A DNA stretch of 64,000 bases, taken from NCBI GenBank assembly GCA_964650295.1, contig CAZYSY010000095.1, forward strand, positions 74 to 64,073, in the 5' to 3' direction. Position 1 is the stretch's first letter; each line of letters starts with the position of its first letter. A program made the position numbers and the translations under genes. The stretch comes from an uncultured Caldilineales bacterium (GTDB taxonomy: Bacteria > Chloroflexota > Anaerolineae > J102). Shown piece after piece: positions 19,001 to 64,000 of this stretch. The notes under the pieces were generated by a model. That model did not search any database. It had not been told where the DNA came from and was given only the letters and a program-made list of their open reading frames with translations.

Positions 19001-22000
19001 GGTATTGCAAGTCATGCCCGGCTCTGAGTTTGCCATTTTTGATGAAAGCCGTTTCACCATACGCCCGGGCGTACAGGCAGATATTGACGCTCTGATTCGA
19101 CATCTGGATGAGCGCAACCAGCTTCCCAAAACCATCGTCATTGCCTGGAATCGAGCCGACGCCGATTTCAACGAAGCCCGTCAGCGTGGCGTCACCACCC
19201 TTACCTCTCTGGCACGCGCCCTATATCAGCGCGGCATTACCCAACAACTACAGCTGGTTTTCATTGGCCATCACGCGCTCGACTTCTCCAGCCTTTCCCA
19301 AATCCATCCTTTTCAGGCCATGGCTCTGGGACCATGTAGGGTGGTCGCCGAGGAGTTCTCCAACATCCGGTGTCGTTTTCTCGATGTGACCATTCCTGAC
19401 GGCTCAGAAGCACGATTAAAATTGGCACGAAAAATCGCACTCGACATCCTCAACTCGCACGATCCTGTGGTGGTCTATCGAGGGGGGCGGCGCTGGGTGC
19501 AGACCTTCGAACCTTTGTCACCTCAGGAAAGCGCCGAGGCGCGTTTGCGTTCACGCGGCGTCTACCTCATCACCGGCGGTCTGGGCAACATGGGCTTGCT
19601 GTTTGCCCGCTATCTGGCCCAAAAGGTGCAGGCTCGACTGATTTTGGTGGGCCGGACGCCACTGCCCCCGCGGCAAGATTGGGAATCCTGGTTGGATCGC
19701 TCCCAACCTGACGATGTTCTCGCTCAACGCATTCGTACTGTGCGCGAGTTAGAAAGTCTGGGCGCGGAAGTGTTGACTTTTGCCGCCGACGTGGCGGATG
19801 AAAGCGCCATGCGTCATGTGCTGGATGCTGCCCTGGCCCACTTTGGCGTTCTGCATGGCGTACTGCACGCTGCTGGCGTGGTGGGCCTGGACGCGTTGAC
19901 GCCATTAGCCGAGACCGCCGAAGAAGTGTGCGCGCGGCATATCCGGGCCAAGGTGTTGGGCAGTCTCAATCTGGCGCATCTGCTGGAAGACCAGCATCTC
20001 GACTTCGTCTTGCTTCAATCCTCCCTTTCCACGGTGCTGGGTGGATACGGCATGACCGCTTATGCCGCGACCAACGCCTTCATGGATTCTCTGGCCGCGC
20101 GTGAATTTTACCGCACCGGCACCCCCTGGATGAGCATCGACTGGGATGGGTGGGCCTTTGATGACGGCGGCATGAACAATGTCTCTCTGGGCGCTTCTGA
20201 ACTGGCCATCTTACCTGATGAAGGGCTGGAAGTGCTGGAGCATCTTCTGGCGTATGACGATTTGCCTCAAGTGGTGGTCTCTACTGCCGACTTGCAGGCC
20301 CGGCTGCAAAAGCTGGAGTCGATGAAAACCGGGCCGGAAGAAAGTCTGGATGAGGATGAGGATGGGGGAGAGGATTCACCATCAGAGATGCATCCTCGCC
20401 CAGACCTCGACACGCCTTTTGTCGAACCCACCACTAAACTCGAAAAAGAAATCGCCAGTTTGTGGGAGCAAACCCTGGGCATTGCTCCGGTAGGGTTGCA
20501 CGATGATTTTTTCGCTCTGGGAGGACATTCGCTACTGGCCACCCAGATCGTCTCCCGTTTGAGGGACGCCTATAAGGTTAATCTGCCTTTGCGACGTTTG
20601 TTCGAAGCGCCCACCATCGCTGGGTTGGCCCGCCTGATCCAGGCCGAAAGTGAACAGGTCGAGGGGAAGCCAGCGTTTTCCTCGACCATCCAGCCCGTAC
20701 CCAGGCAGAAATACATGCCCCTCTCGCCAGGACAGCAGCGCCTGTGGTTCCTGGATCGACTGGACCCAGGCGCGCCGCTCTATAACAACTTTTCCGCCAT
20801 CAAACTGCAGGGTGAGATTTCAACTCCCTTGCTGGAGCAAAGCCTTAATCTCATTGTGCAGCGACACGAGATTTTGCGCACCACCTTTCACGAAGTCGGC
20901 GGCAAGCCGGTGCAACACATCCATGATGAGATGCCCATCCACCTGCCCATGCGCGATCTCAGCGAAATGTCGTCCGCGACTCGCGAAGAATGGATTCTGC
21001 AGTTGGCCGCGAATCACGCCCGTCAGCCCTTCGATCTCAGCCAGGGGCCCTTGCTGCGGGCTGAGGCGTTGCGCCTGGCTGCGGATGAACACATCATCTT
21101 TTTTACCATGCATCATATCGTCTCCGATGGTTGGTCGGTGGCAGTGATGCTGGAAGAGCTGACCGCCATCTATCGGGCGTTGGCCGCAGGCGTTGATCCC
21201 GATCTGCCTCCTTTGCCCATCCAGTATGTCGATTTCGCCGCCTGGCAATTGACACGAGTGCGTTCCGACTTTATCGCCGAACAAATCGCATGGTGGCAGG
21301 AGCAATTGGCCCATCTCGAGCCGCTGGAACTTCCTACCGATCGCCCCCGTCCACCTGTTCAAACCTCCCATGGAGCGGTGGAATGGTTCCAACTCCCCGA
21401 TGAAACCTATCGGCAACTGTCGCACCTGGCACAGCAGCAAGGCGTGACCACGTTTATGATATTGTCCGCGGGATTGGCCGCGCTTTTACATCGCTACACC
21501 ATGCAAGATGACATCACATTGGGCACGCCCATTGCCAATCGCACCCGGGTCGAAACCGAGGGACTTATCGGTTTTCTGCTCAACACCCTGGTGCTAAGGA
21601 CCGATTTGGCGGGGGATCCCAGTTTTGGCGAATTGCTGGCGCGGGTGAAGCAAACTACCATAGATGCGTATGAACATCAGGACGTTCCTTTCGAGATGTT
21701 GGTGGATGCATTACAACCCGCACGGGACATGAGCCGCACGCCTCTCTTTCAGGTAATGATTGACTTTCAGCAGGCGCAACTTTCCCGTTTCCAATGGCCT
21801 GGGCTCACACTCTCGCTACTACGCTACGACGATGCCACAGCCAAATTCGATATGACGTTTTCGTTGGAAGAATCTCCACAGGGCATTGCTGGTTCTCTCA
21901 ATTATAACACCGATCTGTTCGATAGGAGAACCGCGCGGCAGATGGTGAAACATTACATCCGTCTCCTCAAGACCGTAGTGAATTCGCCCGACCTGCGCAT

Positions 22001-23975
22001 CTCGCAATTGCCTTTGCTGGATGAAGATGAACTGGCTCGTCTGGACGCGTGGGGCGGGCTGGACGCGTCCGCGCATGATGCCGCCGCGCCCGATCTGCTG
22101 CAACAATTCGCGGCCCAGGTCGCTGCTCGTCCCCACGCCCAGGCCGTGGTGCAAGAGGATGTGGCGCTAACCTATGCGCAGCTCGAAGCCCGCGCCAACC
22201 AGATCGCCCATGCTTTGTTGAGTAGAGGCGTGAAGCCAGAGCAGGTTGTCGGCCTGTTCCTGGAGCGCACGCCCGAGCTCATCGCCGCCATCATGGGCGT
22301 CCTCAAAGCTGGCGCCGCCTTTGTCGTTCTCTCAGCCGATTATCCCGCAGAGCGGACGCGCTTCATCCTTCAGGACGCTCAGGTGAAGGTGGCGCTTGGT
22401 GAGCAACCAGCTTTCGCCGTGCCGGAACCTCAACCACCGGCCACTTTGCCCCAATACATCACCCCGGATGACACGCTGGACCAGCCATCTACGCCTCCGG
22501 CACTCACCCCCTTCCCCAAAAGTGCGGCTTACATCATCTACACCTCGGGCACTACGGGCCAGCCCAAGGGGGTTGTGGTGGAGCGGGATGCGCTCTCCCG
22601 GCACATCGCCAGCATTGCCCGAGCGTTTGGCGTCACCTCTGGAGATCGGGTTTTGCAATTTGCGGCGCTCACGTTTGATCAAGGCTTGGAGCAGGTTTTT
22701 GTCACGCTCACCACGGGCGCAACCCTGGTGATGCGTGGGGATGAGGTGTGGCCTCCGGAGGATTTTGCCCGGGTGGTGCAGCAAAATCAGCTCTCGGTCA
22801 TCAATTTGCCTCCAGCCTATCTGAGTCAAGTGATGCGCGTTTGGGGAGAAGAAAATCCTCGTGATTTGGTGGGTGACCTGCACCTCATCATTTCGGGCGG
22901 CGATGCTCTGCCTCGGGAGATTGTGAAAATTTGGCGGCGGGTGTTGCCTGAAGTGCGACTCATCAATGCTTATGGCCCCACCGAGGCTGTCATCACCGCC
23001 ACCACCCACGACATTCCTACGCATGCTGTCGAGGATGAGGCTTTGTTTGGCGCTTTGCCCATCGGACGGCCTGTCTCTCCGCGCACTGCAGTCATTCTCG
23101 ATGACTATGGCAATCGCACCCCCATTGGTGTGCCCGGCGAATTGTGTTTGGGCGGCGCTGCCCTGGCCCGGGGCTATCTCCACCGCCCCGCCATCACCGC
23201 CCAGGCTTTTCAGCCAGATGTTTGGAGCAGCAAGGCGGGAGCGCGGCGCTATCGCACTGGTGATCTGGCTCGCTTCCGTGCGGATGGCGTCATCGAATTT
23301 CTGGGACGCATCGATCGTCAGATAAAGATGCGAGGTTTCCGCATCGAGCCCGGAGAGATCGAAGCGGCGTTGCATCAACATCCGGCCATCGATGTGGCTG
23401 TGGTGCAGCTGGTCTCGCGGGAGCCTGATGATAAAATTATGGCAGCCTACATCCATCGCGCTTCAGGAGATTTGCCCTCTGTGGCGCAGTTGCACGAATA
23501 TCTCAAAACGCGTTTGCCCCATTACATGATCCCTGGCGTTTTTGTGCCGCTCACAGAGCTTCCACTGACCCGCAGCGGCAAAATCGACTATCGGGCGTTA
23601 CCCCCGGTGGATGAAGGACACCGTTTGCACCACGGCCAGGAGTATGTGGCTCCGTCAACGCCTGTGGAAGAGGACTTGGCCCGTATCTGGGCTGAGGTGC
23701 TAGGCCTGGAGCAGGTTGGCGTCCACGACAATTTCTTCGAGCTGGGCGGGCATTCATTGCTGGCTACCCAGATCGCCTCTCGCATGCGTGAGCTTTATGA
23801 TGTGGAAATTCCTTTACGCTCCCTGTTTGCATCGCCCACCATTGCCCAGCTGGCTGCAATCATCACCGAAGCCATGCTGGAGCAAGCGACCGATGAGGAT
23901 ATGGCTGATTTGTGGGAGCAACTGGATGATCTTTCTGAGGAAGAATTGATGCGTCTTTTGCAAGAGGATGATTGA
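16089..23975 (+). CDS. Hybrid PKS-NRPS: KS-AT-KR-CP (M4) fused to C-A-PCP (M5)
   Basis: 2628-aa ORF preceded by 'aggag' 7 nt upstream. Acidic N-terminus 'MNDSGFSESHDYNDQEIDHGYD'. KS 'QTACSTSLVAVH'. AT 'GHSIGEY' and 'SHAFHSAMM'. KR 'YLITGGLGNMG' and 'YAATNAFMD'. PCP-like carrier 'FFALGGHSLLATQIVSRL'. C 'HHIVSDGWS'. A 'YIIYTSGTTGQPKGV'. PCP 'FFELGGHSLLATQIASRM'. Acidic tail 'LSEEELMRLLQEDD'. Confidence 0.95.
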   Translation: MNDSGFSESHDYNDQEIDHGYDIAVIGLAGRFPGAETIEEFWQNLIQGAESIQFFTREEMEAAGVDSKLLEHPQYVNAGGHLDGADRFDSSFFGFYPREADILDPQHRIFLEVAWEAIERAGYNPDIYKEPIGVFAGMSMGSYLYFNLMHNRLIRKTVQPYQLPMSSDKDFLTTRVSYKLNLKGPSVDVQTACSTSLVAVHLACQSLLNYECDMALAGGVSIRIPQKSGYLYQEGGILSPDGHCRPFSADARGTVSGEGAGVVVLKRLEDALRDGDTIYAVIKGTAINNDGAGKVGYTAPSVDGQAKVIASAQVLAGVAPFEISYIEAHGTGTMLGDPIEIEALSQVFREHTDEKQFCAIGSVKANIGHLDAAAGVAGLIKTVLALQHRQLPPSINFTAPNPQIDFAGSPFYVQEKLTDWTTDRLPRRAGVSSFGMGGTNAHAILEEAPQRPASGPSRAWQLITLSARTPAALEQITDNFAIYLQQHPQVNLADAAYTLKLGRKTFKYRRMLVAQTSAEVIAAIENRDGERISDAVEEFEGRPVAFMFSGQGAQYVNMARDLYQTEPIFAEQVDRCAHLLLPHLQLDIRSLIFPPAEKEDEASEKLRQTQYTQPALFIIEYGLAQLWMHWGVQPAAMIGHSIGEYVAATLAGVFSLEDALALVSARGKLMQALPGGAMLSVQLSEAEIRPWLETDSRLALAAINTPGLVAVSGPFDAIDTLEQALEQAGHGVRRLHTSHAFHSAMMQPILEPFAQLVAQAAPKPPTTRFISNVTGDWITAEQATDPTYWARHLRQTVRFADGVGQLLADSVMALLEIGPGNTLTRLAGWHPAAGKTRIILASLRHPRTQQQDQAFLLRTLGQMWLAGISLDWQAFYENERRYRIPLPTYPFQRQRHWIKPDMRELENVGGEMELMLSKRQPPETWLYAPSWRRAPLPGNLPRGDHISAPWLIFRDELGDPMLMTLLQAGYPVLQVMPGSEFAIFDESRFTIRPGVQADIDALIRHLDERNQLPKTIVIAWNRADADFNEARQRGVTTLTSLARALYQRGITQQLQLVFIGHHALDFSSLSQIHPFQAMALGPCRVVAEEFSNIRCRFLDVTIPDGSEARLKLARKIALDILNSHDPVVVYRGGRRWVQTFEPLSPQESAEARLRSRGVYLITGGLGNMGLLFARYLAQKVQARLILVGRTPLPPRQDWESWLDRSQPDDVLAQRIRTVRELESLGAEVLTFAADVADESAMRHVLDAALAHFGVLHGVLHAAGVVGLDALTPLAETAEEVCARHIRAKVLGSLNLAHLLEDQHLDFVLLQSSLSTVLGGYGMTAYAATNAFMDSLAAREFYRTGTPWMSIDWDGWAFDDGGMNNVSLGASELAILPDEGLEVLEHLLAYDDLPQVVVSTADLQARLQKLESMKTGPEESLDEDEDGGEDSPSEMHPRPDLDTPFVEPTTKLEKEIASLWEQTLGIAPVGLHDDFFALGGHSLLATQIVSRLRDAYKVNLPLRRLFEAPTIAGLARLIQAESEQVEGKPAFSSTIQPVPRQKYMPLSPGQQRLWFLDRLDPGAPLYNNFSAIKLQGEISTPLLEQSLNLIVQRHEILRTTFHEVGGKPVQHIHDEMPIHLPMRDLSEMSSATREEWILQLAANHARQPFDLSQGPLLRAEALRLAADEHIIFFTMHHIVSDGWSVAVMLEELTAIYRALAAGVDPDLPPLPIQYVDFAAWQLTRVRSDFIAEQIAWWQEQLAHLEPLELPTDRPRPPVQTSHGAVEWFQLPDETYRQLSHLAQQQGVTTFMILSAGLAALLHRYTMQDDITLGTPIANRTRVETEGLIGFLLNTLVLRTDLAGDPSFGELLARVKQTTIDAYEHQDVPFEMLVDALQPARDMSRTPLFQVMIDFQQAQLSRFQWPGLTLSLLRYDDATAKFDMTFSLEESPQGIAGSLNYNTDLFDRRTARQMVKHYIRLLKTVVNSPDLRISQLPLLDEDELARLDAWGGLDASAHDAAAPDLLQQFAAQVAARPHAQAVVQEDVALTYAQLEARANQIAHALLSRGVKPEQVVGLFLERTPELIAAIMGVLKAGAAFVVLSADYPAERTRFILQDAQVKVALGEQPAFAVPEPQPPATLPQYITPDDTLDQPSTPPALTPFPKSAAYIIYTSGTTGQPKGVVVERDALSRHIASIARAFGVTSGDRVLQFAALTFDQGLEQVFVTLTTGATLVMRGDEVWPPEDFARVVQQNQLSVINLPPAYLSQVMRVWGEENPRDLVGDLHLIISGGDALPREIVKIWRRVLPEVRLINAYGPTEAVITATTHDIPTHAVEDEALFGALPIGRPVSPRTAVILDDYGNRTPIGVPGELCLGGAALARGYLHRPAITAQAFQPDVWSSKAGARRYRTGDLARFRADGVIEFLGRIDRQIKMRGFRIEPGEIEAALHQHPAIDVAVVQLVSREPDDKIMAAYIHRASGDLPSVAQLHEYLKTRLPHYMIPGVFVPLTELPLTRSGKIDYRALPPVDEGHRLHHGQEYVAPSTPVEEDLARIWAEVLGLEQVGVHDNFFELGGHSLLATQIASRMRELYDVEIPLRSLFASPTIAQLAAIITEAMLEQATDEDMADLWEQLDDLSEEELMRLLQEDD
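16152..17435 (+). other. Ketosynthase domain, M4 (accepts an aminoacyl/peptidyl chain from the upstream PCP)
   Basis: 'DIAVIGLAGRFPG', 'QTACSTSLVAVH', 'EAHGTGTMLGDPIE', 'KANIGHLDAAAG', 'FGMGGTNAHAILEEAP'. Confidence 0.9.
17718..18715 (+). other. Acyltransferase domain, M4, malonyl-type
   Basis: 'VAFMFSGQGAQYVNM', 'GHSIGEYVAATLAG', 'TSHAFHSAMM'. Confidence 0.85.
19558..20160 (+). other. Ketoreductase catalytic subdomain, M4
   Basis: 'GVYLITGGLGNMGLLFARYL', 'LHAAGVVGLD', 'GMTAYAATNAFMD'. The region 18870-19550 looks like the KR structural subdomain. There is no DH or ER motif. Confidence 0.85.
20440..20640 (+). other. Carrier domain, M4 (PCP-like sequence in a PKS module)
   Basis: 'LWEQTLGIAPVGLHDDFFALGGHSLLATQIVSRL'. 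Confidence 0.8.
20712..22010 (+). other. Condensation domain, M5
   Basis: 'MPLSPGQQRLWFLDRLDP' and 'FTMHHIVSDGWS'. Confidence 0.9.
22096..23605 (+). other. Adenylation domain, M5; code DQENIGAITK (unassigned; nearest recalled code is Orn DMENLGLINK)
   Basis: Anchors: 'LTFDQGLEQ', 'SVINLPPA', 'LIISGGDA', 'INAYGPTEAVIT', 'SGKIDY'. Confidence 0.8.
23668..23865 (+). other. PCP domain, M5
   Basis: 'IWAEVLGLEQVGVHDNFFELGGHSLLATQIASRM'. Confidence 0.85.
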
Positions 23976-23986
23976 GAGTTGATTCT

Positions 23987-26900
23987 ATGAGCAAGAAGCT
24001 GCAAGATTTGTCTCCCGAAAAACGGGCGCTTTTAGAAAAATGGCTGAAGAAGAAAGCCATGGCCCGACGTCAGGCCCAAGCCATCACCCCGCGCCCTGAT
24101 CCCAATGAATATCCCCTTTCGTTTGGACAGCAGCAGTTGTGGTTTTTCGACCAACTGGAGCCAAACAGCTCCCTCTACAACATTTCGGGGGCAGTGCGAT
24201 TGCGCGGGACGTTAGATCGCCAGGCCTTGGCCCGTAGTATGAATCAGGTGGTGCAACGGCATGCGGTGCTGCGGGCCCGTTTTATTACAAAAGATGGCGA
24301 ACCTCGCCAGATCATCGCACCGGAACTTTCACTCCCACTGGCTTATGAGGATTTGCGCCATCTGCCTCCGGCGCAACGCGAAGCCCAGGCGCTGGCGATG
24401 GCCACCACCGAGGCTCAACGTCCTTTCGATCTGGCCAATGGCCCTTTGCTGCGGGCCATGCTGTTACAACTGGACGCACAGGAGCACATGGTGGTTGTCT
24501 CCATGCACCACATCGTAGCGGATGGCTGGTCGATTGGCATCTTCTTGCGAGAGATGGCTTTGCTCTATGACGCCTATGTGCAGGGACGTAATCCCGACCT
24601 GCCCTCTCTGCCCATCCAGTATGCAGATTACGCCCACTGGCAGCGGCAGCAGTTGCAAGGGGCGAAGTTAGATGAGCAGCTACAGTACTGGGAAAAACAA
24701 CTCTCTGGCATTCCTCCCCTGCTAGAACTACCCACCGATCATCCCCGCTCCGCGATTCTTTCGCATCAGGGCTCGCATTACCAGTTTCGACTTCCATCTC
24801 AGCTGACCGCTCAACTCAAGGCGTTGAGTCGCTCCCAGGGGGTCACCTTTTTTTCCACCTTGCTGGCGGCATATAGCGTTCTTCTTCATCGCTACTCCCG
24901 TCAGGACGATTTGGTGGTGGGGACGCCCTTTGCCCATCGCGACAAGACCGAGCTGGAAAACCTCATCGGCTATTTCGTCAATATGCTGGCTTTGCGCACC
25001 GATCTCGCTGGCAATCCCACCTTCCGCGAATTGTTGGGGCGGGTGCATCAGGTGGTGCAGGAGGCGCAAGAGCATCAGGATTTGCCCTTTGAGATGTTGG
25101 TTTCCCACATACAGCCCCGTCGCGATCCTGGTGTTAGCCCCATTTTTCAGGCAGCGCTGGTATTTCAGCAGGCATTGCCCCGGTTGCAGCTGGGAGAATT
25201 GGAGATGGAGCTGATTGCTACCGATATTGGCACGGCCAAGGTGGACCTTTCGCTGGTGGTGGAGGAGGATGCCGAGGGGATGCGCTGCGCTTTTCGCTAT
25301 CGCACGGACCTATTCGCCGCCAGCACCATGGCCCGCATGGCCCGCCATTTTATCCATCTGCTGCAAAGCATTGTCCAAAATCCCGATACGACTGTGGCTC
25401 GTCTACCCTTGATGGGGGCCGAGGAGCGGCAATTGTTGTTGGAAAAGTGGCGGGGATTTTCCATAGATTACGGGCCAACGTTAGCCATCCAGCAGCTTTT
25501 CGAAGAGCAAGCCGCACTGACGCCAGAGGCTGTCGCTCTGGAATTTGTTCCCCTTTCCCCAACCTGCCCTTATCCTCCGACTTATATGACGTATGCCGAA
25601 CTCAACCGGCGCGCCAATCAACTCGCTCATTATTTGCGTGATCTGGGGGTAGGGCCCGAGATCCTGGTGGGGCTGCAAATGCAACGCTCACCCGAGATGC
25701 TGGTGGGAATGTTGGGCATTCTCAAGGCGGGAGGCGCTTATTTGCCCCTAGACCCTGATTATCCAGCGGAACGCATTCGTTACATGATCGATGATTCGGG
25801 CGTGCAGATCGTCGTGACCAACATGGCTGTCACGAGCGAGGATGCTTCTGGCATACACTATGTCCATTGTCATGCTTCTGAGCTGGATAGCCAGCCTGAG
25901 ACCAATCCTGAGCCACTCACTCGCCCTGAACATCTGGCGTATGTCATCTACACCTCCGGCTCCACTGGTCAGCCTAAGGGTGTGGAGGTGTTGCAGCGGG
26001 GGCTCATCAATCATGCTCGCAGTCTGGCGAATATTTATGATTTGGGCGTGGGAGATCGGGTATTACAGTTCATTACCCTGAGTTTCGACGCCGCAGGTGA
26101 GGAAATTTATCCCGCGCTCATCTCTGGCGCCACGTTGGTGCTCATCAGCTCCGCGGCTGAGCTGGTAGGCGGGCGCTTGTTGCACTTCTGCGCTGCCCAT
26201 GACATTCATGTGCTGCATTTGCCAGCGTCTATTTGGCATCAGAGCGTGGATGACATGGCAGGCGCAGCACCGCTGGATTTATCTTTGCGAGTGCTGCTGG
26301 TGGGAGGCGAAAGGCCAGATCTAACCCGTCTGCGCACCTGGGCCCGGCTGCACCGTCATCCCGCCCGCTTCATCAACGCCTATGGCCCAACCGAGAGCAC
26401 CATCACTGCACTCTGGTTCGAGACTGCCAGCACACCTCAGATGGTAGACGCGCTGGAACTGATTCCGGTAGGACGGCCACTGCCTAATGTTCATGTTTAT
26501 ATTTTGGATGAAGCAATGCAGCCTGTACCTATTGGCGTGCCCGGCGAGCTGTATATTGGTGGTGTGGGCGTAGCTCGAGGATATTTGGGCCGACCACAAC
26601 TCACTTCCGAACGTTTTCTGCCCGATCCTTTTCTCTCATATCCCGGGGCCCGAATTTACAAGACTGGCGATTTGGCCCGCTGGTTGCCCAATGGTTACAT
26701 CGAATTCATGGGGCGGGTGGATGAACAGGTGAAAATCCGCGGCTTTCGCGTAGAGCTGGGTGAGATCGAAAGCGCTTTGGTCCTTTTATCTGCAGTGAAA
26801 GAGGCGGCTGTAACAGCGCGCGTGGACGATGGGCATCAACGTCTGGTGGCGTATGTCGTTCCTGCCCATGATTCGCTCGTCATCGATCAGGTGCGAGAAG

Positions 26901-29900
26901 CGTTGCGTCAGCGCCTACCCGAATACATGATTCCCGCGGCTTTTGTGCTGTTGGATGAATTGCCGCGGCTGCCCAATGGCAAGATCGACCGCCATTCTCT
27001 GCCTGAGCCAGAGGGTGAACGCCAGGTGGGGCAGGATTTCGTCGCGCCGCGCGATGCCTTGGAATTGTATTTGGCAGACATGTGGCGAGCGCTGTTGGGG
27101 GTGCGTGAGATTGGCGTAAACGACAATTTCTTCGAGTTGGGCGGCAATTCCATTCTGGGAGCGACATTTGTCAATCGTTTGCAGGATCGGTTGGGCGAAT
27201 ACATCTATCTGGTGGCGTTGTTCGACGCTCCCACCATTGCGCAACTGGCCGCTTATCTACGAGAAAACTATCCTATAGGCGTGGCGCGCATGTTGGGTGA
27301 GGATGCTGACGCGGCAGCTCAAACCGTGGCTCGGGCCGCACACGCTCAGGTGGTCACGCCGGCAGACCTGCGCCGGCTACGCGAGCTCATCGTTCCCCTG
27401 CCGCCCCGGCCCGCATCACTGGCGGGTGGGCCAAAAAATCCCCGGGCTGTGTTCATCCTTTCCGCACCTCGGTCTGGCTCCACGCTGCTGCGCGTCATCC
27501 TGGGAGGCAACCCCCGTCTTTTCGCTCCTCCTGAGTTGCAATTGCTCAATTACAACACCCTGGCCCATCAGCAGGCCGCATTGGGCAATGAGCGGGATGA
27601 ATTCTGGCTGGATGGCATCTTGCGGGCTATTATGGAGCTGCGTCAGTGTGATGTGGAGGAGGCCCAAGCCATCTTCCGTTCCTATATCGAACAGAATCTG
27701 ACCATTAAACAATTCTATGGCGTGCTCCAATCCTGGTTGGGCGACCGCATCTTTGTCGATAAAACGCCCAACTATGCTCTGGATGAGCAGGTGCTGCGGC
27801 GGGCGGAAGAGGATTTTGCCGATCCTCTTTACATCCACCTCGTCCGTCATCCATATGCAGTAATTCCCTCCTTCGAGAAAGCCAAGCTCCACGTCTTCTA
27901 TCCTCCCTTTTTCAAAGGAGAACATCCATTTACTCCTGGCCAACTGGCTGAACTCATCTGGCTCGTCAGCCATCAAAACATCCTCAGCTTCTTGCAAGAT
28001 GTGCCAGAGCAGCGGCAACATCGCGTGTATTACGAAGACTTGGTGCAACATCCTTATGAAACAATCAGCAACCTATGCAGTTTCCTCGGTGTCGATTTTC
28101 ATCCCGACATGTTGGAGCCGCAAAAGAACCCCAAGCGACGTATGACCGATGGCATCCATCCTCTGGCGCGCATGGTGGGCGATGTGCGTTTCTTTGAGCA
28201 CAAAGGCATTGATGGCCGTAACGCATATCGCTGGATGGAGAAGCTCGAGGTGGATTATCTCAGCGAGATGACCTGGCAAATGGCCAGCGATTTGGGGTAT
28301 GAGCGTTTACGAGGTTGGCCCAGGCCCGGCGAAAGCCAGGCGCTGGATGCGATCACGCCGCAGCCGCGGGTGGTGGACCAGGAAACTGGCGTTGTCGAAA
28401 ATCTGCCACTCTCCTTCGGACAGGAACGCCTCTGGTTTTTGCATCAGCTGGATCGGGAAAGCGCCAGCTATAACATGCCTTTGGCGTTGCGCATGAGGGG
28501 AGCGTTGCATGTTGCCGCTCTGGAAGAGAGCCTGAACCGGGTGATCCATCGGCATGAGGTGCTCCATACAAGTTTTCCTGCCATCCAGGGGCGCTCTGCC
28601 CTGGCACTGCATCCTGACCTGCATCTGACCTTGGTGGCAGAAGATCTGAACCCGTCGGCAGATGTCATGGCCAGCGCCCAGGAGCTGACTTCCGGTGAGG
28701 CGCAACGTCCTTTTGATTTGGAGCATGGGCCTTTGGTGCGGGCGCGACTTTTGCGCCTGGGGCCCGAGGATCATCTTTTGCTTCTCACCATGCATCACAT
28801 CGTGGCTGATGGCTGGTCCATGGGGGTGTTCGTGCGGGAGGTGGCGGCTTTTTATCGGGCGCTGGTGGCGGGGGAGGCAATAAACCTGCCTGAGCTGCCA
28901 GTGCAATACGCAGATTTCGCCTTTTGGCAACGCCAATGGTTGCAACGAGCGGCAGCGCAACGCCAATTGGCTTATTGGAAGCGCCAACTGGCTGGAGCTC
29001 CCGCACTGTTGGAACTTCCCACCGATTTTCCTCGCCCCCAGGAGCCTACCGAGCGGGGCACTTTCGAGACATTTGCATTGCCAGCGACTCTGGTGGAGCC
29101 ATTGCGCGATCTGGCCAATGAGCAGGGAGCTACCCTGTTCATGGCATTGGTCGCCCTTTTCGAAGTCCTCCTTTATCGCTATTCTGGACAAGAGGATTTC
29201 AACCTGGGCACGCCTGTGGCCGGGCGCACCCGCGCCGAGTTGGAGCCGCTCATCGGATTTTTCGTCAACACCCTGGTGTTACGGGCTGATCTTTCGGGCC
29301 AGCCCGACTTCCGGCAACTATTGGCCCGGGTGCAGGATGTGACCGTGCAGGCTTTCGCCAACCAGGATCTGCCCTTCGAGATGCTGGTGGACGCGTTGCA
29401 GCCGCAGCGGGCCCTGGGACATTCCCCTTTGTTTCAAGTTATGTTTGTGTTGCAAGACGCACCTACCGACGCGTTGCAGTTGCCCGAGTTGACCATCTTC
29501 CCTCAACCCGTAGACACAGGCGCGGCCAAGTTCGATCTCACCCTCTCCATCACCGACATGGGGGGGGAGCTGCGCGGCCTGTTGGAATACAATACAGACC
29601 TTTTTCATCAACAGACCATCCTCCGTATGATTCAGCATCTGCGTCTGCTATTGGAGGGCGTGGTGGCCAACCCGGATCAACCTGTATCCACGTTGCCCAT
29701 GCTCACTCCAGCCCAGAAACGCATGATTTTGCACGACTGGAATGGCCCCGAGGTTGAATATCTCCATTTGCGCCCCGTTCATGAATTGATCGCTGCTCAG
29801 GCCCAACGCACGCCTGAGGCCACTGCGCTCATCTTCGCTGGTCCTGAAAGCGCTCAGACCAAAACCATGAGCTATCGCGAGCTGGATCGCCGCGCCAATC

Positions 29901-32900
29901 AGCTTGCGCATCATCTGCGCACTTTGGGGGCGGGCCCCGATGTACTGGTGGGTTTGATGATGCCGCGTTCTTTGGAGATGATGGTGGGGTTGTTGGGCAT
30001 CCTCAAGGCCGGCGCTGCATATGTGCCCATCGATCCTGACTACCCTGGGGAGCGCATACGTTACATGCTGGATGATGCCGGGGTGCAGGTAGTGGTTTCC
30101 AACCTTCTTCTCGAGGATGACGCTTCTTCCCGTCTACTGCATGTTGTCGATCCCGCGGATGAGACGCTTTTCTCTTATCCTGAGACGCCTCCCAACATCT
30201 CCATCACCCTGGATAATTTGGCTTACGTCATTTATACCTCGGGCTCCACCGGTCAGCCCAAAGGGGTGATGATACCTCACCGCGGGGTGGCGAATCATGC
30301 GTTGGCCCTGAAAGAAATATATGACTTAAGGCCCGATGATCGCATGTTGCAGTTCATCACGCTGAGCTTCGATGCTGCTGGCGAGGAGATTTATCCAACA
30401 CTCATCAGCGGAGCATCTCTGGCGCTCATTCCTTCGGCCACCGATCTCATGGGTGCTGCCCTCTTCCGCTTTTTGCAGGAACACGACATCACCATCGTGC
30501 ATTTTCCCGCCGCGGCCTGGCATCAGAGCTTGGAGGCGTTTTTGGCTCAGGGCGGTCGCTTCCGCGGTAAATTACGCTTGTTGCTGCTGGGCGGAGAACG
30601 GCCAGATTTGCAACGCTTGTGCCAATGGGGGGATGAACTGTCGCAACCTCTGACCTTCATCAATGCTTACGGACCCACCGAAACCACCATCACCGCCACC
30701 CTTTACGCCACCGCCTGTCATAGTCACTCTCTGGCGCATCTCGATAACGTGCCCATTGGGCGACCGATTGCTAATGTCCGCGTCTATGTGTTGGATGAGT
30801 GGCAGCAACTCGCACCCATCGGCGTGCCCGGAGAATTGTACATTGGCGGTGCGGGGGTGGCCCGGGGCTATCTCCACAGGCCTGATCTCACTCCGGCCAG
30901 TTTCCTACCCGATCCTTTTAGTTCCGTGCCGGGGGAGCGCATCTATCGCACCGGCGATCTGGTGCGTTGGTTGCCTGATGGCAATCTGGAATTTTTGGGT
31001 CGCGTGGATGATCAGGTCAAGATCCGGGGATTCCGCGTGGAACTGGGCGAGATCGAGATCCATCTCAAGGCTCATCCGCAGGTGGCTGATGTTGTGGTGC
31101 AGACTCGCAAGAGCATTTCTGGCCATAATCGTTTGGTGGCTTATGTGGTGACTCGGGATGAGGATGTTTCTGCCGCACACCTGGCCGCACACTTGCGCCA
31201 GCGTTTACCCGAATACATGATCCCTTCTGCATTTCTCTTCTTGTCTGCGCTTCCCTTGTTGCCCAATGGCAAGGTGAATCGCCGGGCTTTGCCCGAGCCT
31301 GAATTCAATCGTCCCGAGCTTTCTGCCGAGTACGTGGCCCCGACCACGCCTTCGGAGAAGATTCTGGCCAACATCTGGACGGAGTTGCTGGGGTTGGAAC
31401 AGGTGGGCGTACATGACAATTTTTTCGAGCTTGGTGGTGATTCGATCCTCAGCATTCAGGTTATCGCCCGGGCGCAGCAAGCGGGCCTGCATCTGCAACC
31501 CAAACAGATTTTCCAACACCCCACCATCGCTGGCCTGGCCGCGGTGGCCATGCCCATCCAACCCATCCACGCGGAGCAGGGCGTTGTCGTTGGCGATGCG
31601 CCTCTGACGCCAATCCAGCATTGGTTCTTCCACCTGGATTTGCCAAATCCTCACCATTGGAACCAGTCCATCCTGCTGGAGGTGGATGAGCCGCTGGCAG
31701 AGGAACCCTTGCGGCAGGCTTTGGCTGCCTTGCTGAAACATCATGATGCCCTGCGGTTGCGTTTTCGACGTGAAGAAGATGGCTGGCGACAATGGATCGA
31801 GGATATGGAGGACGACATCCCCCTGGAGGTGGTGAACCTGGCGGACGCACCTGACGCGTCTTTGGCCGATCTCATCCAGCAGAGATCAGCCCAGGCCCAG
31901 GCCGGACTTCATCTGGAACATGGCCCCATGCTGCAAGTGATATATTTCAATCTCGGGCTGCGACGTGCGCATCGTCTGTTGCTGGTGTTGCATCATCTGG
32001 TGGTGGATGGCGTTTCCTGGCGCATCATCACCGAAGACTTACAGAGTGCTTATGCCCAGGCTGTCCAGGGAGATCAGGTTGTTCTTCCTCCCAAAACCAC
32101 CTCTTTCCGTTATTGGGCTCAGCGGTTGCAAGAGTATGCGGCCAGTGAGGATTTGAAGGCGCAAATGGAGTTCTGGCTCCAGGCAGTTGGCGCAGCGCCC
32201 TCTGCTCTGCCTTTGGATTTCCCTGGCGCTGAAAATACCGAGGCTTCGGCGCAATCCTTGAGTCTGGCATTGAGCGCCCAGGAAACCGCAGTTCTCTTGC
32301 AGGATATGCCCGCAGTTTATGGCAGCGATGTGAATCAGGCCTTGCTGACAGCGCTGGCCCTGGCTTTGGGGCGAGATGGCGCTGGCTCCGTACTCATCGA
32401 GCAGGAGGGACATGGCCGCGAAGACCTGTTCTCTGATGTGAATCTTTCACGAACCGTGGGATGGTTTACCTCCATCTACCCCCTGCATCTCGCTTTGCCC
32501 TCAGGCCCTCGCACCTCCGGCCCTCAGCGTCGTGCTGCGGGGTTGGGGCCAGGAGCTGGTTTGGGCGCAGCTGCACAGAAGCGAAGATCTGAGTTTTCGG
32601 CAGATGATTTGGTGGATGCGTTGCAGGCGGTGAGCGTCCAGGTTCGGGCCTTGCCTCAACATGGCCTGGGTTACGGACTGTTGCGCTATTTGCATCCCGA
32701 TCCCCAGGTGCGGGCGCAGCTGGCCGCATTGCCCCAGGCCCAGGTCAGCTTCAACTATTTGGGCCAGTTCGATGCTGGTACGCGACAGGATGACGTTTTT
32801 CGTCTGGCCGCGGAAGCGCGTGGACCTGAACGCGACCCTCGCGGGACACGTCAGCATGTGCTGGAAATCAGTGCCAGCATTGTCGCAGGCGAGTTGCTCA

Positions 32901-33097
32901 TCAACTGGCGTTATAGCCGCAATCTGCATCGCCCGGCCACGGTGCAGCGTCTGGCCGATGACTTTTTGCAGCTTTTGCGTCAGCTGATTGTCCGTTGTCG
33001 TCAAGATGCAGCCCAGGGCAAAACTGCAGTGGATCTCTCGCAGGCTGATCTTTCTGAGCAAGACTTGGATGCGCTGCTGGATGAATTGGATTTCTAA
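23987..33097 (+). CDS. NRPS: C-A-PCP-ST (M6) and C-A-PCP-E (M7)
   Basis: The ORF track starts it at a TTG (23972) that overlaps the upstream stop. ATG 23987 gives 'MSKKLQDLSPEKRALLEKWLKKK', a typical NRPS N-terminus, 11 nt after the upstream TGA. Motifs: C 'HHIVADGWS' (twice), A 'YVIYTSGSTGQPKGV' (twice), PCP 'GGNSILGATFVNRL', sulfotransferase 'FILSAPRSGSTLLRV', PCP 'GGDSILSIQVIARA', E 'TPIQHWFF' and 'HHLVVDGVSW'. Confidence 0.95.
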   Translation: MSKKLQDLSPEKRALLEKWLKKKAMARRQAQAITPRPDPNEYPLSFGQQQLWFFDQLEPNSSLYNISGAVRLRGTLDRQALARSMNQVVQRHAVLRARFITKDGEPRQIIAPELSLPLAYEDLRHLPPAQREAQALAMATTEAQRPFDLANGPLLRAMLLQLDAQEHMVVVSMHHIVADGWSIGIFLREMALLYDAYVQGRNPDLPSLPIQYADYAHWQRQQLQGAKLDEQLQYWEKQLSGIPPLLELPTDHPRSAILSHQGSHYQFRLPSQLTAQLKALSRSQGVTFFSTLLAAYSVLLHRYSRQDDLVVGTPFAHRDKTELENLIGYFVNMLALRTDLAGNPTFRELLGRVHQVVQEAQEHQDLPFEMLVSHIQPRRDPGVSPIFQAALVFQQALPRLQLGELEMELIATDIGTAKVDLSLVVEEDAEGMRCAFRYRTDLFAASTMARMARHFIHLLQSIVQNPDTTVARLPLMGAEERQLLLEKWRGFSIDYGPTLAIQQLFEEQAALTPEAVALEFVPLSPTCPYPPTYMTYAELNRRANQLAHYLRDLGVGPEILVGLQMQRSPEMLVGMLGILKAGGAYLPLDPDYPAERIRYMIDDSGVQIVVTNMAVTSEDASGIHYVHCHASELDSQPETNPEPLTRPEHLAYVIYTSGSTGQPKGVEVLQRGLINHARSLANIYDLGVGDRVLQFITLSFDAAGEEIYPALISGATLVLISSAAELVGGRLLHFCAAHDIHVLHLPASIWHQSVDDMAGAAPLDLSLRVLLVGGERPDLTRLRTWARLHRHPARFINAYGPTESTITALWFETASTPQMVDALELIPVGRPLPNVHVYILDEAMQPVPIGVPGELYIGGVGVARGYLGRPQLTSERFLPDPFLSYPGARIYKTGDLARWLPNGYIEFMGRVDEQVKIRGFRVELGEIESALVLLSAVKEAAVTARVDDGHQRLVAYVVPAHDSLVIDQVREALRQRLPEYMIPAAFVLLDELPRLPNGKIDRHSLPEPEGERQVGQDFVAPRDALELYLADMWRALLGVREIGVNDNFFELGGNSILGATFVNRLQDRLGEYIYLVALFDAPTIAQLAAYLRENYPIGVARMLGEDADAAAQTVARAAHAQVVTPADLRRLRELIVPLPPRPASLAGGPKNPRAVFILSAPRSGSTLLRVILGGNPRLFAPPELQLLNYNTLAHQQAALGNERDEFWLDGILRAIMELRQCDVEEAQAIFRSYIEQNLTIKQFYGVLQSWLGDRIFVDKTPNYALDEQVLRRAEEDFADPLYIHLVRHPYAVIPSFEKAKLHVFYPPFFKGEHPFTPGQLAELIWLVSHQNILSFLQDVPEQRQHRVYYEDLVQHPYETISNLCSFLGVDFHPDMLEPQKNPKRRMTDGIHPLARMVGDVRFFEHKGIDGRNAYRWMEKLEVDYLSEMTWQMASDLGYERLRGWPRPGESQALDAITPQPRVVDQETGVVENLPLSFGQERLWFLHQLDRESASYNMPLALRMRGALHVAALEESLNRVIHRHEVLHTSFPAIQGRSALALHPDLHLTLVAEDLNPSADVMASAQELTSGEAQRPFDLEHGPLVRARLLRLGPEDHLLLLTMHHIVADGWSMGVFVREVAAFYRALVAGEAINLPELPVQYADFAFWQRQWLQRAAAQRQLAYWKRQLAGAPALLELPTDFPRPQEPTERGTFETFALPATLVEPLRDLANEQGATLFMALVALFEVLLYRYSGQEDFNLGTPVAGRTRAELEPLIGFFVNTLVLRADLSGQPDFRQLLARVQDVTVQAFANQDLPFEMLVDALQPQRALGHSPLFQVMFVLQDAPTDALQLPELTIFPQPVDTGAAKFDLTLSITDMGGELRGLLEYNTDLFHQQTILRMIQHLRLLLEGVVANPDQPVSTLPMLTPAQKRMILHDWNGPEVEYLHLRPVHELIAAQAQRTPEATALIFAGPESAQTKTMSYRELDRRANQLAHHLRTLGAGPDVLVGLMMPRSLEMMVGLLGILKAGAAYVPIDPDYPGERIRYMLDDAGVQVVVSNLLLEDDASSRLLHVVDPADETLFSYPETPPNISITLDNLAYVIYTSGSTGQPKGVMIPHRGVANHALALKEIYDLRPDDRMLQFITLSFDAAGEEIYPTLISGASLALIPSATDLMGAALFRFLQEHDITIVHFPAAAWHQSLEAFLAQGGRFRGKLRLLLLGGERPDLQRLCQWGDELSQPLTFINAYGPTETTITATLYATACHSHSLAHLDNVPIGRPIANVRVYVLDEWQQLAPIGVPGELYIGGAGVARGYLHRPDLTPASFLPDPFSSVPGERIYRTGDLVRWLPDGNLEFLGRVDDQVKIRGFRVELGEIEIHLKAHPQVADVVVQTRKSISGHNRLVAYVVTRDEDVSAAHLAAHLRQRLPEYMIPSAFLFLSALPLLPNGKVNRRALPEPEFNRPELSAEYVAPTTPSEKILANIWTELLGLEQVGVHDNFFELGGDSILSIQVIARAQQAGLHLQPKQIFQHPTIAGLAAVAMPIQPIHAEQGVVVGDAPLTPIQHWFFHLDLPNPHHWNQSILLEVDEPLAEEPLRQALAALLKHHDALRLRFRREEDGWRQWIEDMEDDIPLEVVNLADAPDASLADLIQQRSAQAQAGLHLEHGPMLQVIYFNLGLRRAHRLLLVLHHLVVDGVSWRIITEDLQSAYAQAVQGDQVVLPPKTTSFRYWAQRLQEYAASEDLKAQMEFWLQAVGAAPSALPLDFPGAENTEASAQSLSLALSAQETAVLLQDMPAVYGSDVNQALLTALALALGRDGAGSVLIEQEGHGREDLFSDVNLSRTVGWFTSIYPLHLALPSGPRTSGPQRRAAGLGPGAGLGAAAQKRRSEFSADDLVDALQAVSVQVRALPQHGLGYGLLRYLHPDPQVRAQLAALPQAQVSFNYLGQFDAGTRQDDVFRLAAEARGPERDPRGTRQHVLEISASIVAGELLINWRYSRNLHRPATVQRLADDFLQLLRQLIVRCRQDAAQGKTAVDLSQADLSEQDLDALLDELDF
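25488..27005 (+). other. Adenylation domain, M6; code DAEHLGAITK (unassigned)
   Basis: Anchors: 'LSFDAAGEE', 'HVLHLPAS', 'LLVGGER', 'INAYGPTESTIT', 'NGKIDR'. Confidence 0.8.
27056..27258 (+). other. PCP domain, M6, ST-associated subtype
   Basis: 'NDNFFELGGNSILGATFVNRLQDRLG'. It shares 'ATF(V/I)NRLQ' only with the other ST-linked PCP at 60556-60756. Most other non-E PCPs here read 'GGHSLLATQ..SR'; M3 reads 'GGHSLLLAKV'. Confidence 0.8.
27431..28303 (+). other. Sulfotransferase domain ST1 (CurM/Ols ST-like), in-line between PCP(M6) and C(M7)
   Basis: 'AVFILSAPRSGSTLLRVILGGNPRLFAPPELQLL', 'FVDKTPNY', 'LYIHLVRHPYAVIPSF', 'VYYEDLVQHP', 'FLGVDFHPDML', 'GDVRFFEHKGID'. The reading frame was checked codon by codon at both ends. 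Confidence 0.85.
29776..31295 (+). other. Adenylation domain, M7; code DAEHLGAITK (same as M6; residue is epimerised)
   Basis: Anchors: 'LSFDAAGEE', 'TIVHFPAA', 'LLLGGER', 'INAYGPTETTIT', 'NGKVNR'. Confidence 0.8.
31571..33094 (+). other. Epimerisation domain, M7
   Basis: 'AEQGVVVGDAPLTPIQHWFFHLDLPNPHHWNQS', 'HHDALRLRF', 'VLHHLVVDGVSWRI', 'EGHGRED'. Co-linear with the GrsA E domain as I recall it. Confidence 0.9.
33023..33094 (+). other. COM-type donor tail at the end of the E domain
   Basis: 'TAVDLSQADLSEQDLDALLDELDF*', an acidic amphipathic tail like the GrsA/TycA donor COM region. Confidence 0.6.
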
Positions 33098-63300: not shown

Positions 63301-64000
63301 CGCTTCGTTGGCCAGGATGAGATAGAGCTAACCTATGCTGAATTGAACGCTCGCGCCAATCAACTGGGGCATCATTTGCGGGCTCTGGGCGTGCAGCCTG
63401 ACACCCCGGTGGGCATCCTGATGAATCGCTCCGCGGATATGATCGTGGCTCTGTTGGGGGTGATGAAGGCGGGCGCGGCCTACTTGCCTATCGATCCAAC
63501 CTATCCTCCAGAACGCATCCGCTACATGATCCAAGATGCGGGTGTGCAGGTGATGATTGCGGAGGCAGGAAGCGCGTTTGATGAAGTTTGGGCGCAGATC
63601 TGCCAGAATGAAATTCAAGATGTCGAACGCATCATGCTCGACCATCCAGCAATTGCAGCCCGCCCCACCACTGATCTCCCTCTTACCATTACGCCCGATA
63701 ATCTGGCCTACATCATCTACACTTCGGGCTCCACCGGTCGGCCCAAGGGCGTGATGTTGCATCATCGCGGGTTGACCAATCTGGTGTGGGCCCAGACGCG
63801 TGGGTTTGGGGTGGATGATCACGCACGTGTGTTGCAATTCGCGTCTTTTAGCTTCGATGCTTCGGTTTCCGAAATTTTCATGGCCTTGTATCCTGGGGGC
63901 GTTTTGGTGCTGAGTCCGCGCGAAACATTGCTTTCTCCTCCCGATCTGCTGAACTTGTTGCGCCAGCAGCGCATTACTGTGGTGACTCTGCCCCCCTCAT
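54328..64000 (+). CDS. NRPS, 3'-truncated by the window: C-A-PCP (M14), C-A(Asn)-PCP-ST (M15), C-A... (M16)
   Basis: Absent from the ORF track because it has no stop before 64000. I translated frame 1 directly over roughly 54328-54840, 56221-56700, 57961-58035, 59521-59940, 60901-61785 and 63841-64000 with no stops. No other frame-1 ORF is listed after 54300. Starts '[39 protein letters not shown]'. Motifs: C 'HHIISDGWS', 'HHIISDEWS', 'HHIISDGWS'; A '[15 protein letters not shown]', '[15 protein letters not shown]', '[15 protein letters not shown]'; ST '[15 protein letters not shown]'. Confidence 0.9.
   Translation, partial: [3224 protein letters not shown]
55777..57285 (+). other. Adenylation domain, M14; code DAEDVGTIIK (unassigned, Lys/basic-like, same family as M11)
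   Basis: Anchors translated from DNA: 'INFDAAVEE', 'TFLDLPTA', 'LLVVGGEK', '[12 protein letters not shown]', 'TGKLDR'. Confidence 0.8.
58993..60500 (+). other. Adenylation domain, M15; code DLTKIGEVGK (Asn)
   Basis: Anchors translated from DNA: 'ISFDLTVTS', 'SLVKLTPA', 'AFIIGGEA', '[12 protein letters not shown]', 'NGKVDR'. 9 of 10 match the canonical Asn code DLTKLGEVGK, with a conservative L/I change. Confidence 0.85.
60556..60756 (+). other. PCP domain, M15, ST-associated subtype
   Basis: '[26 protein letters not shown]'. Confidence 0.8.
60931..61785 (+). other. Sulfotransferase domain ST2 (CurM/Ols ST-like), in-line between PCP(M15) and C(M16)
   Basis: Translated codon by codon: '[34 protein letters not shown]', 'LVDKTPVY', '[16 protein letters not shown]', '[10 protein letters not shown]', '[10 protein letters not shown]', '[12 protein letters not shown]'. 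Co-linear with ST1 over its whole length. Confidence 0.85.
63247..64000 (+). other. Adenylation domain, M16 (partial); code begins D-A-S-T (Tyr-like), remainder outside the window
   Basis: '[15 protein letters not shown]', 'FSFDASVSE', 'TVVTLPPS'. Only positions 235, 236, 239 and 278 are visible. Confidence 0.7.

Follow-up and report, generated by a model that had tools for sequence, protein, structure and literature searches.

The stretch of DNA examined here (the window) comprises 64,000 nucleotides, positions 74 to 64,073 of contig CAZYSY010000095.1 from an uncultured Caldilineales bacterium. It encodes a single plus-strand polyketide synthase-nonribosomal peptide synthetase (PKS-NRPS) assembly line with a GC content of 57%, whose genes we designate O1 to O9 (Table 1). 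The line contains two sulfotransferase (ST) domains, ST1 in O5 and ST2 in O9, each located in an NRPS elongation module between a carrier (T) domain and a condensation (C) domain. ST1 belongs to elongation module 6 and ST2 to about module 15. A first-pass annotation of the sequence had described ST1 as a CurM-type domain in a PCP-ST-C arrangement (PCP, peptidyl carrier protein); ST2, a second CurM-type domain in the same T-ST-C setting, was absent from that annotation. The conserved sequence features of both domains are best explained if they are catalytically competent sulfotransferases that use 3'-phosphoadenosine-5'-phosphosulfate (PAPS) and work in cis.

The domains of O5 follow one another in the order C (residues 45-490), adenylation (A; 511-991), T (1031-1100), ST (1154-1444) and C (1476-1920), and the protein continues with A, T and epimerization (E) domains. 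The PCP-ST-C order in an NRPS elongation module is real and lies within one uninterrupted open reading frame (ORF). The C domain after ST1, previously described as canonical-looking, begins with ENLPLSFGQERLWFLHQ, contains the motif HHIVADGWS and is of the LCL type. Independent re-derivation of the Stachelhaus specificity code of the module 6 A domain returned the same DAEHLGAITK. O5 loads the residue of this code twice in succession with an ST in the first module only, which fits a tethered, position-specific action. The stop codon of O4 and the proposed TTG start codon of O5 share four bases (23972-23975), an overlap that suggests translational coupling.

Table 1 Features of the assembly line, in window coordinates.
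Feature	Position	Strand	Basis
O1, FAAL	207-1982	+	ORFs, Pfam
O2, ACP-KS-AT-DH-ER-KR-ACP	2064-8843	+	ORFs, Pfam
O3, KS-AT-ACP-C-A-T	8958-15512	+	ORFs, Pfam
O4, KS-AT-KR-ACP-C-A-T	16089-23975	+	ORFs, Pfam
O5, C-A-T-ST1-C-A-T-E	23972-33097	+	One uninterrupted ORF, 3041 aa
ST1 module A domain, code DAEHLGAITK	25502-27055	+	Domain map and code derivation
Carrier (T) feeding ST1, ST-type signature GGNSILGATFVNRLQ	27062-27271	+	Domain map
T-ST linker, about 53 aa	27272-27430	+	Alignment
ST1, CurM/Ols-family PAPS-dependent sulfotransferase domain	27431-28303	+	Pfam, PDB, AF2/Foldseek
LCL-type condensation domain after ST1, HHIVADG	28397-29731	+	Domain map
Next O5 module, A(DAEHLGAITK)-T-E	29792-33097	+	Domain map, codes
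O6, C-A-T-C-A-T		+	Domain map
O7, C-A-T-C-A-T-E		+	Domain map
O8, C-A-T-C-A-T		+	Domain map
O9, C-A-T-C-A-T-ST2-C-A..., runs past the window end	54328-64000	+	Domain map
ST2 module A domain, code DLTKIGEVGK, Asn-type	59008-60549	+	Domain map and code
Carrier feeding ST2, GGDSLQAATFINRLQ	60559-60768	+	Domain map
ST2, CurM-family sulfotransferase domain	about 60931-61785	+	Pfam, PDB
LCL condensation domain after ST2, HHIISDG	61858-63201	+	Domain map

ST1 translates into 291 residues without a stop codon, and every motif string quoted for it in the first-pass annotation is found in this translation. It matches Pfam Sulfotransfer_3 (PF13469) with an E-value of 2e-29 and 103.6 bits against a cut-off of 27. 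A PDB sequence search gave full-length matches to the ST domains of CurM (4gbm; E = 2.2e-66, 42% identity) and of the olefin synthase Ols (4gox; E = 2.2e-57, 41% identity). The assignment to the ST family is far beyond chance. An AlphaFold2 (AF2) model built from a 122-sequence alignment reached a pLDDT of 92.6 (a single-sequence attempt with a pLDDT of 35 was discarded). In Foldseek comparisons it superposes on 4gbm with a TM score of 0.92 and a root-mean-square deviation of 1.9 Å, and on 4gox with a TM score of 0.87; the next-best folds are tyrosylprotein sulfotransferases, with TM scores of about 0.6.

Alignment with CurM and Ols shows that the PRSGST loop (with Arg39, Ser40 and Thr43), Glu60 in a PPEL motif, Lys133 in a VDK(T/S)P motif and the arginine of LVRHP are kept in both ST1 and ST2. 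Glu60 is reported by McCarthy et al. (2012) as the proposed base, Lys133 as catalytic and the LVRHP arginine as the 3'-phosphate arginine; the CurM numbering used here is consistent with a +3 offset of chain 4gbm_A. Of 199 sampled family members, 197 have Glu60, and the counts for Lys133 and Arg39 are identical. The sole active-site difference from CurM lies at position 62, two residues after the catalytic glutamate, where the histidine of CurM is replaced by glutamine in ST1 and by aspartate in ST2. Histidine occupies this position in only five of the 199 sequences, CurM and Ols included. Sequence, fold and catalytic residues thus bear out the CurM-type designation of ST1 at the level of the family; at the level of the subfamily the label does not hold, as ST1 clusters apart from CurM and Ols and carries glutamine in place of the CurM histidine.

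Apart from the exchange of His62, nothing specific points to a catalytically dead domain that serves as a structural or docking insert, and we give this idea hardly any credence. The PAPS-binding and catalytic residues are all kept and are near-invariant in the 199 homologues, the structural model is of high confidence, and the residue at position 62 varies systematically with substrate class and not randomly.

ST2 matches Sulfotransfer_3 with an E-value of 8e-34, 4gbm with 2.1e-68 and 4gox with 6.7e-58. It is 52% identical to ST1, and the two fall into different ST subfamilies. The region around ST2 (56740-62430) is collinear with, and orthologous to, a locus in a metagenome-assembled genome (MAG) from Caldilineae (G439, DUEF01000176.1; L035/L045), with 73% nucleotide identity over 5.7 kb. 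The second C domain of O9 reads HHIISDE at its active-site motif.

The arrangement is not confined to this assembly line. A genome scan with a profile of ST1 and ST2 found 37 loci in MAGs of Calditrichota, Acidobacteriota, Chloroflexota, Bacteroidota (Cytophagia, Cyclobacteriaceae, Kordia), Thiothrix and Phormidesmis. Most are mid-line A-T-ST-C modules; lines with two STs are frequent, and tandem carriers occur in some. The Acidobacteriota loci form C-A-T-ST-TE termini (TE, thioesterase). In an exhaustive hidden Markov model search of 1.84 billion cluster representatives, 1266 proteins were found at E <= 1e-30. The best 150 of these are nearly all megasynthases, in which the ST is followed by a C domain in 77 cases and by a TE in 47, and proteins of about 3000 residues with the order C-A-T-ST-C-A-T-E, resembling O5, recur among them. 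Mid-line STs thus define a module type that is widespread rather than an isolated case. The first-pass annotation had called the arrangement not known as characterised. In the full-text literature searched, which includes few subscription journals, no account of an ST within an NRPS elongation module came up, and an earlier report may exist elsewhere; the claim needs qualifying in that the architecture is widespread and PCP-ST-C is known from loading modules.

Several observations connect each ST with the residue loaded in its own module. Of 104 A domains located before an ST, 43 have codes of the Ser, Thr, Tyr or homoserine type, compared with 11 of the 78 other A domains of the same proteins (odds ratio 4.3, Fisher p = 7e-5). 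For 62 of 75 STs, the nearest neighbor from another protein shares the upstream A-code class, against 12% expected by chance. The best relatives of ST1 (58-67% identity) all follow DAEH-type A domains, and those of ST2 (79% identity) follow Asn-type DLTKIGEVGK domains. The cluster that contains ST1 has 11 members, nine of them behind DAEH-type A domains, and continues with a C domain in ten cases and a TE in one. In the cluster of ST2 (n = 34), the upstream codes are aliphatic (12), DAEN (5), Ser (4) and Asx (3), and only C domains follow, with four members ending at the end of the sequence. The largest cluster (n = 118) is preceded by Thr, Ser, Tyr and other codes and followed by C or TE, while CurM and Ols (n = 2) form a cluster of their own between a PKS KR-ACP and a TE.

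The residue at position 62 follows the same pattern. It is glutamate behind all 21 Thr codes, behind 17 of 20 Ser codes and behind eight of nine Tyr codes; glutamine behind all nine DAEH codes; aspartate behind 12 of 16 aliphatic codes; and histidine in CurM and Ols, where a PKS precedes. True starter modules of the form A(Ser)-T-ST-C (P0166 and P0200) and a stand-alone A(Tyr)-T-ST-TE protein (P0253) have no upstream chain, so that the loaded residue is the only possible acceptor. A further candidate for a stand-alone protein, the A(DAEHLGAITK)-T-ST-TE protein P0140, was dropped because its upstream "gene" consists of a C domain and the start of an A domain, a split gene call that makes P0140 a terminal module.

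The carriers, too, are distinct. Behind the phosphopantetheine (Ppant) serine, carriers followed by an ST share the consensus GGxSIxGAx(L/F)(I/V)NRLQ (n = 114), compared with GGHSLLATQVxSRxR for carriers followed by a C domain (n = 41) and GGDSILSIQVIARA for those followed by an E domain (n = 17). Both of the carriers that feed an ST in the window have the helix-II signature of pre-ST carriers. Its distinctness suggests that these PCPs are a dedicated subtype, evolved together with the ST.

Three candidate acceptors had been named in the first-pass annotation. The comparative evidence favors one of them, the residue of module 6 itself, and makes the other two, the statine-type hydroxyl and the phenol of a Tyr-like residue, less attractive. 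Sulfonation of a hydroxyl elsewhere in the chain (the statine-type β-hydroxyl from the KR of O4 or the phenol from O3) would be consistent with the lack of a predicted hydroxyl on the ST-module residues of the window, with the Gly-type codes before some STs, and with four loci (L009, L018, L022 and L032) in which the ST comes one or two modules after a KR-ACP. We nevertheless regard it as quite improbable. The adjacent A code is mirrored in ST subfamily, position 62 and carrier signature; in addition, some starter modules contain an ST, and several lines carry two STs. ST2 comes 11 modules, or 12 carrier domains, after the KR, and a hydroxyl made there would be expected to have a dedicated ST directly behind the O4 ACP.

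We therefore prefer a reading, to which we assign a probability of roughly 50%, in which the residue on the adjacent carrier undergoes PAPS-dependent O-sulfonation on the assembly line, is passed to the LCL domain and keeps its sulfate in the product. The chain would sit on the specialised carrier directly upstream of the ST, which would sulfonate a side-chain hydroxyl of the residue that the module's own A domain has loaded. For ST1 this would be the DAEHLGAITK residue, and for ST2 it would be Asn, most likely β-hydroxylated first by an enzyme encoded outside the window. The sulfated peptidyl thioester would then be handed to an ordinary LCL condensation domain, and a doubly sulfated lipopeptide of at least 13 residues would result. 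A β-hydroxy-Asn route fits the link of the ST2 subfamily with Asn, Asp and aliphatic residues, which trans-acting β-hydroxylases usually target. The identity and order of the domains, their intact catalytic residues and the co-variation of each ST with its module are observed; which atom accepts the sulfate, that a hydroxylase acts in trans and that the sulfate stays are inferred.

Retention is favored by the ordinary LCL domains, the Tyr-type modules, the precedent of the loading modules, the family member P0172 described below, and the sulfated Asn and citrulline known from natural products. The C domains after STs have nearest neighbors that mix post-ST and post-T domains; a special clade of post-ST C domains, for example a dehydrating one, was tested and ruled out by these mixed neighbors. 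Tyr-type ST modules can yield nothing but an aryl sulfate, which is stable. Products are known for just one kind of ST-C system, the FkbH-PCP-ST-C loading modules of OciA, DysB and AerB, where the sulfate is retained as sulfated glyceric acid. Mutremdamide A contains a β-sulfated Asn (PMC3280575), and the sulfolipodiscamides contain a sulfo-ureido, that is N-sulfonated, citrulline (PMC12426817); a 2025 review of sponge peptides mentions no sulfotransferase.

The sulfate could instead be activating. A β-hydroxyl sulfate would leave again before or during the next condensation, to give a dehydro residue by β-elimination or a ring by displacement. CurM and Ols, the closest characterised homologs, act on β-hydroxyacyl thioesters (mechanism in PMC11730487), enrichment before STs is strongest for Ser and Thr, and the α-proton of a β-sulfated aminoacyl thioester should on chemical grounds be acidic. 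The Acidobacteriota C-A(Ser/Thr)-T-ST-TE termini mirror ACP-ST-TE. We consider this route unlikely, given that the post-ST C domains are ordinary LCL domains without a dehydrating or otherwise specialised clade, that elimination is impossible in Tyr-type modules and that the sulfate is retained in the only ST-C systems with known products. In addition, the ST-module residues of the window are not Ser or Thr, and the Thr module of O7 has no ST. Widening the idea to include dehydration of the Asn carboxamide, with dehydro-amino acids, small rings or a nitrile as products of on-line activation, leaves it equally doubtful. If it were true, activating in-line STs would be a sulfate counterpart of the phosphorylation and glutamylation routes in lanthipeptide dehydration, with a dedicated PCP subtype and substrate-matched ST subfamilies serving this purpose across many uncultured phyla.

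A number of points weigh against on-line O-sulfonation with retention. Neither ST-module residue in the window is predicted to bear a hydroxyl; Asn has none, and glutamate at position 239, as in DAEHLGAITK, is typical of cationic substrates. The code-to-substrate assignments themselves rest on published code tables. The closest solved relatives, CurM and Ols, use the sulfate as a leaving group. The co-variation of ST and A code is confounded by the shared ancestry of whole modules, although the correlations hold across many phyla and in C-type as well as TE-type contexts, and some ST modules elsewhere have Gly or aliphatic codes. No hydroxylase or PAPS-supply gene is visible in the window or, as far as it is readable, in the source contig. 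This can be explained by the megasynthase genes, which fill the window. The source contig, ENA metagenome contig ERZ27262694 k141_25861 of 67.6 kb, extends the window by no more than about 165 bp on one side and about 3.4 kb on the other, the downstream side. An exact-match scan of metagenome contigs with the last 45 bases of the window, which could have extended the cluster, gave no match. A Pfam scan of ten flanking ORFs of related loci found no hydroxylase or PAPS gene clearly linked to the ST; it did find ABC exporters, an iron-containing redox enzyme, a methyltransferase and regulators.

The glutamate at position 239 occurs in DAEHLGAITK and in five other codes of the line, and it marks basic substrates. 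This raises the possibility of N-sulfonation, in which ST1 would act in the manner of SulN and make a sulfamate or sulfo-ureido group on an amine or ureido side chain such as that of 2,4-diaminobutyrate (Dab), Orn, Lys or citrulline. Glutamine at the His62 position is unique to the ST1 clade, and it is also present in an enzyme of Agrobacterium vitis plasmid pRvVAT039a (NZ_AP023281.1, L001, record 330867-342091), a stand-alone A-T-ST-TE protein of 1215 residues with the code DAEVVGAVAK. The A. vitis gene adjoins ectB (Dab synthesis) and cysDN, and its neighbors further include a SET-domain methyltransferase, a class I methyltransferase and a DMT transporter; by its gene content the locus appears to be a small pathway for sulfonating a Dab-like amino acid. 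Codes of the form DIWE(I/L)TADDK, which are Dab-like, recur before STs. SulN N-sulfonates a PCP-bound peptide (PMC11298585), and the citrulline of the sulfolipodiscamides provides a sulfo-ureido precedent. For ST1 we hold N-sulfonation to be a minority possibility. It is not known for any member of this ST family, the enrichment across the family is for hydroxyl residues, the substrate of DAEH-type A domains has no assignment, and ST2 behind Asn would be left unexplained.

The specificity codes of the line were derived by alignment to a GrsA reference, which itself returned DAWTIAAICK. In line order they are DASIVAGIGK (O3), DQENIGAITK (O4), DAEHLGAITK (ST1 module), DAEHLGAITK, DAKNFGVANK, DAWTVAAVCK, DFWNIGMVHK, DAEDIGTIVK, DAEHMGLITK, DAWTIAAVCK, DAEDVGTIIK, DLTKIGEVGK (ST2 module) and DAST.... 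We take DFWNIGMVHK to specify Thr, DAWT(V/I)AAVCK Phe and DLTKIGEVGK Asn, and leave the DAE-type codes without an assignment; the module with the Thr code, in O7, has no ST. A full-text literature search with DAEHLGAITK and 11 other Stachelhaus codes matched no paper.

The PKS part of O3, KS-AT-ACP, has no KR and no aminotransferase, so a β-ketoacyl chain would pass to the next C domain, which has HHIVVDL in place of HHxxxDG. In the KS of O4 (16089-17300), a regular expression for DTACSS was unmatched in a search by pattern only, and both His motifs are there. Long minus-strand ORFs, for example 27416-28051, 28307-29191 and 59290-60327, were set aside as antisense artefacts of GC-rich coding DNA; four that overlap megasynthase genes were scanned and gave no Pfam match, and their translations resemble reversed NRPS sequence.

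Other members of the family occur in further settings. In five loci from Calditrichota and Cytophagia MAGs (L008, L009, L033, L036 and L039), the ST is preceded by tandem carriers, T-T-ST. In the four of these loci whose contig includes the upstream A domain, its code is of the DAEN or DAEK type. Such doubling of carriers typically marks modules on which tailoring enzymes act in trans. The C-A-T-ST-TE termini were found in MAGs of Pyrinomonadaceae and Thermoanaerobaculia (L011-L017, L042 and L043), with codes for Ser or Thr or the code DVENVGVILK. By analogy, as peptide counterparts of the ACP-ST-TE of CurM, they could give C-terminal enamides through decarboxylative elimination. The flank of one such locus (L015) was scanned and contains an iron-containing redox enzyme, a PRMT-like methyltransferase and two ABC exporters downstream. 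Cyanobacterial ACP-ST proteins of about 430 residues, the top word-index matches to ST1, were rejected as relatives in an NRPS setting, since they belong to cassettes of ACP-ST and an α/β-hydrolase and are not NRPS parts. In Anabaena sp. PCC 7108 (KB235896.1 1351110-1372414, L004), an ACP-ST gene is followed by an α/β hydrolase gene, with an APS kinase and a second sulfotransferase nearby; on this gene arrangement, the locus is predicted to be a free-standing cassette of ACP-ST and a TE-like enzyme, unattached to a PKS.

In-line sulfotransferases have so far been known from PKS termini, where they serve alkene formation, and from glycerate loading modules. The window and about 200 homologs point to a third and much larger use, as tailoring domains in amino-acid elongation modules. 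Three features of these modules are linked, namely a carrier subtype of their own, ST subfamilies matched to the residue, and one active-site position that predicts the residue class. The interest thus lies in a large uncharacterised class of A-T-ST-C modules more than in a single locus. The class offers a genetic handle on the origin of sulfated residues such as the β-sulfated Asn of mutremdamide and the sulfo-ureido citrulline of the sulfolipodiscamides. It also provides a rule for mining MAGs of Chloroflexota, Calditrichota, Acidobacteriota and Bacteroidota for sulfated lipopeptides, and a portable T-ST unit with which charge and solubility could be engineered into nonribosomal peptides. 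If the sulfate were a leaving group, the modules would represent a new route to dehydro residues.

Among characterised systems, the ST domains of CurM (curacin A) and of the Synechococcus PCC 7002 olefin synthase resemble ST1 and ST2 in fold and in the PRSGST, Glu60, Lys133 and LVRHP elements. They too are fused directly behind a carrier and act on a thioester-tethered substrate. They differ in standing at a PKS terminus, where a decarboxylating TE follows (ACP-ST-TE), whereas ST1 and ST2 stand mid-line between an A-loaded PCP and an LCL domain. In CurM and Ols the TE performs hydrolysis and decarboxylative elimination with the β-hydroxyl sulfate as leaving group. Besides their different residues at position 62, ST1 and ST2 have an insertion of three to five residues in the loop aligned to KLVGLGEENPY of CurM. 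They also fall into clusters separate from CurM and Ols, and their sulfate is probably retained.

SulN of sulfazecin biosynthesis, compared here by description, parallels the proposed role of ST1 and ST2 in that it performs a PAPS-dependent sulfonation on a PCP-bound peptide (PMC11298585). In contrast to the cis-fused ST1 and ST2, it is free-standing, acts on the amine of the 2,3-diaminopropionate of the last module and primes β-lactam closure by the TE. The tyrosylprotein sulfotransferases TPST1 and TPST2, the next-closest solved fold, likewise sulfonate peptide side chains; they share 17-21% identity with ST1 in structural alignments and are not linked to a carrier. The A-T-ST-C modules in MAGs agree with those of the window in architecture, in carrier signature and in the way ST subclade and A code correspond, the G439 locus being an ortholog, while the ST modules of Acidobacteriota and A. 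vitis differ from ST1 and ST2 in ending with a TE.

The PCP-ST-C order within an NRPS is shared with OciA (cyanopeptolin/oscillapeptin), DysB (dysinosin) and AerB (suomilide, varlaxin). In these proteins the ST is part of a starter module and acts on glycerate loaded by FkbH, whereas ST1 and ST2 have C-A before the PCP, belong to elongation modules and occur twice in one line. P0172 (FkbM, about 560 unassigned residues, then T-ST-C-A-T-E) has an AerB/DysB-like layout and is among the best family matches, with 392 bits against the ST1/ST2 profile. By analogy, ST1 and ST2 would work most like the loading-module STs of the cyanopeptolin/aeruginosin type.

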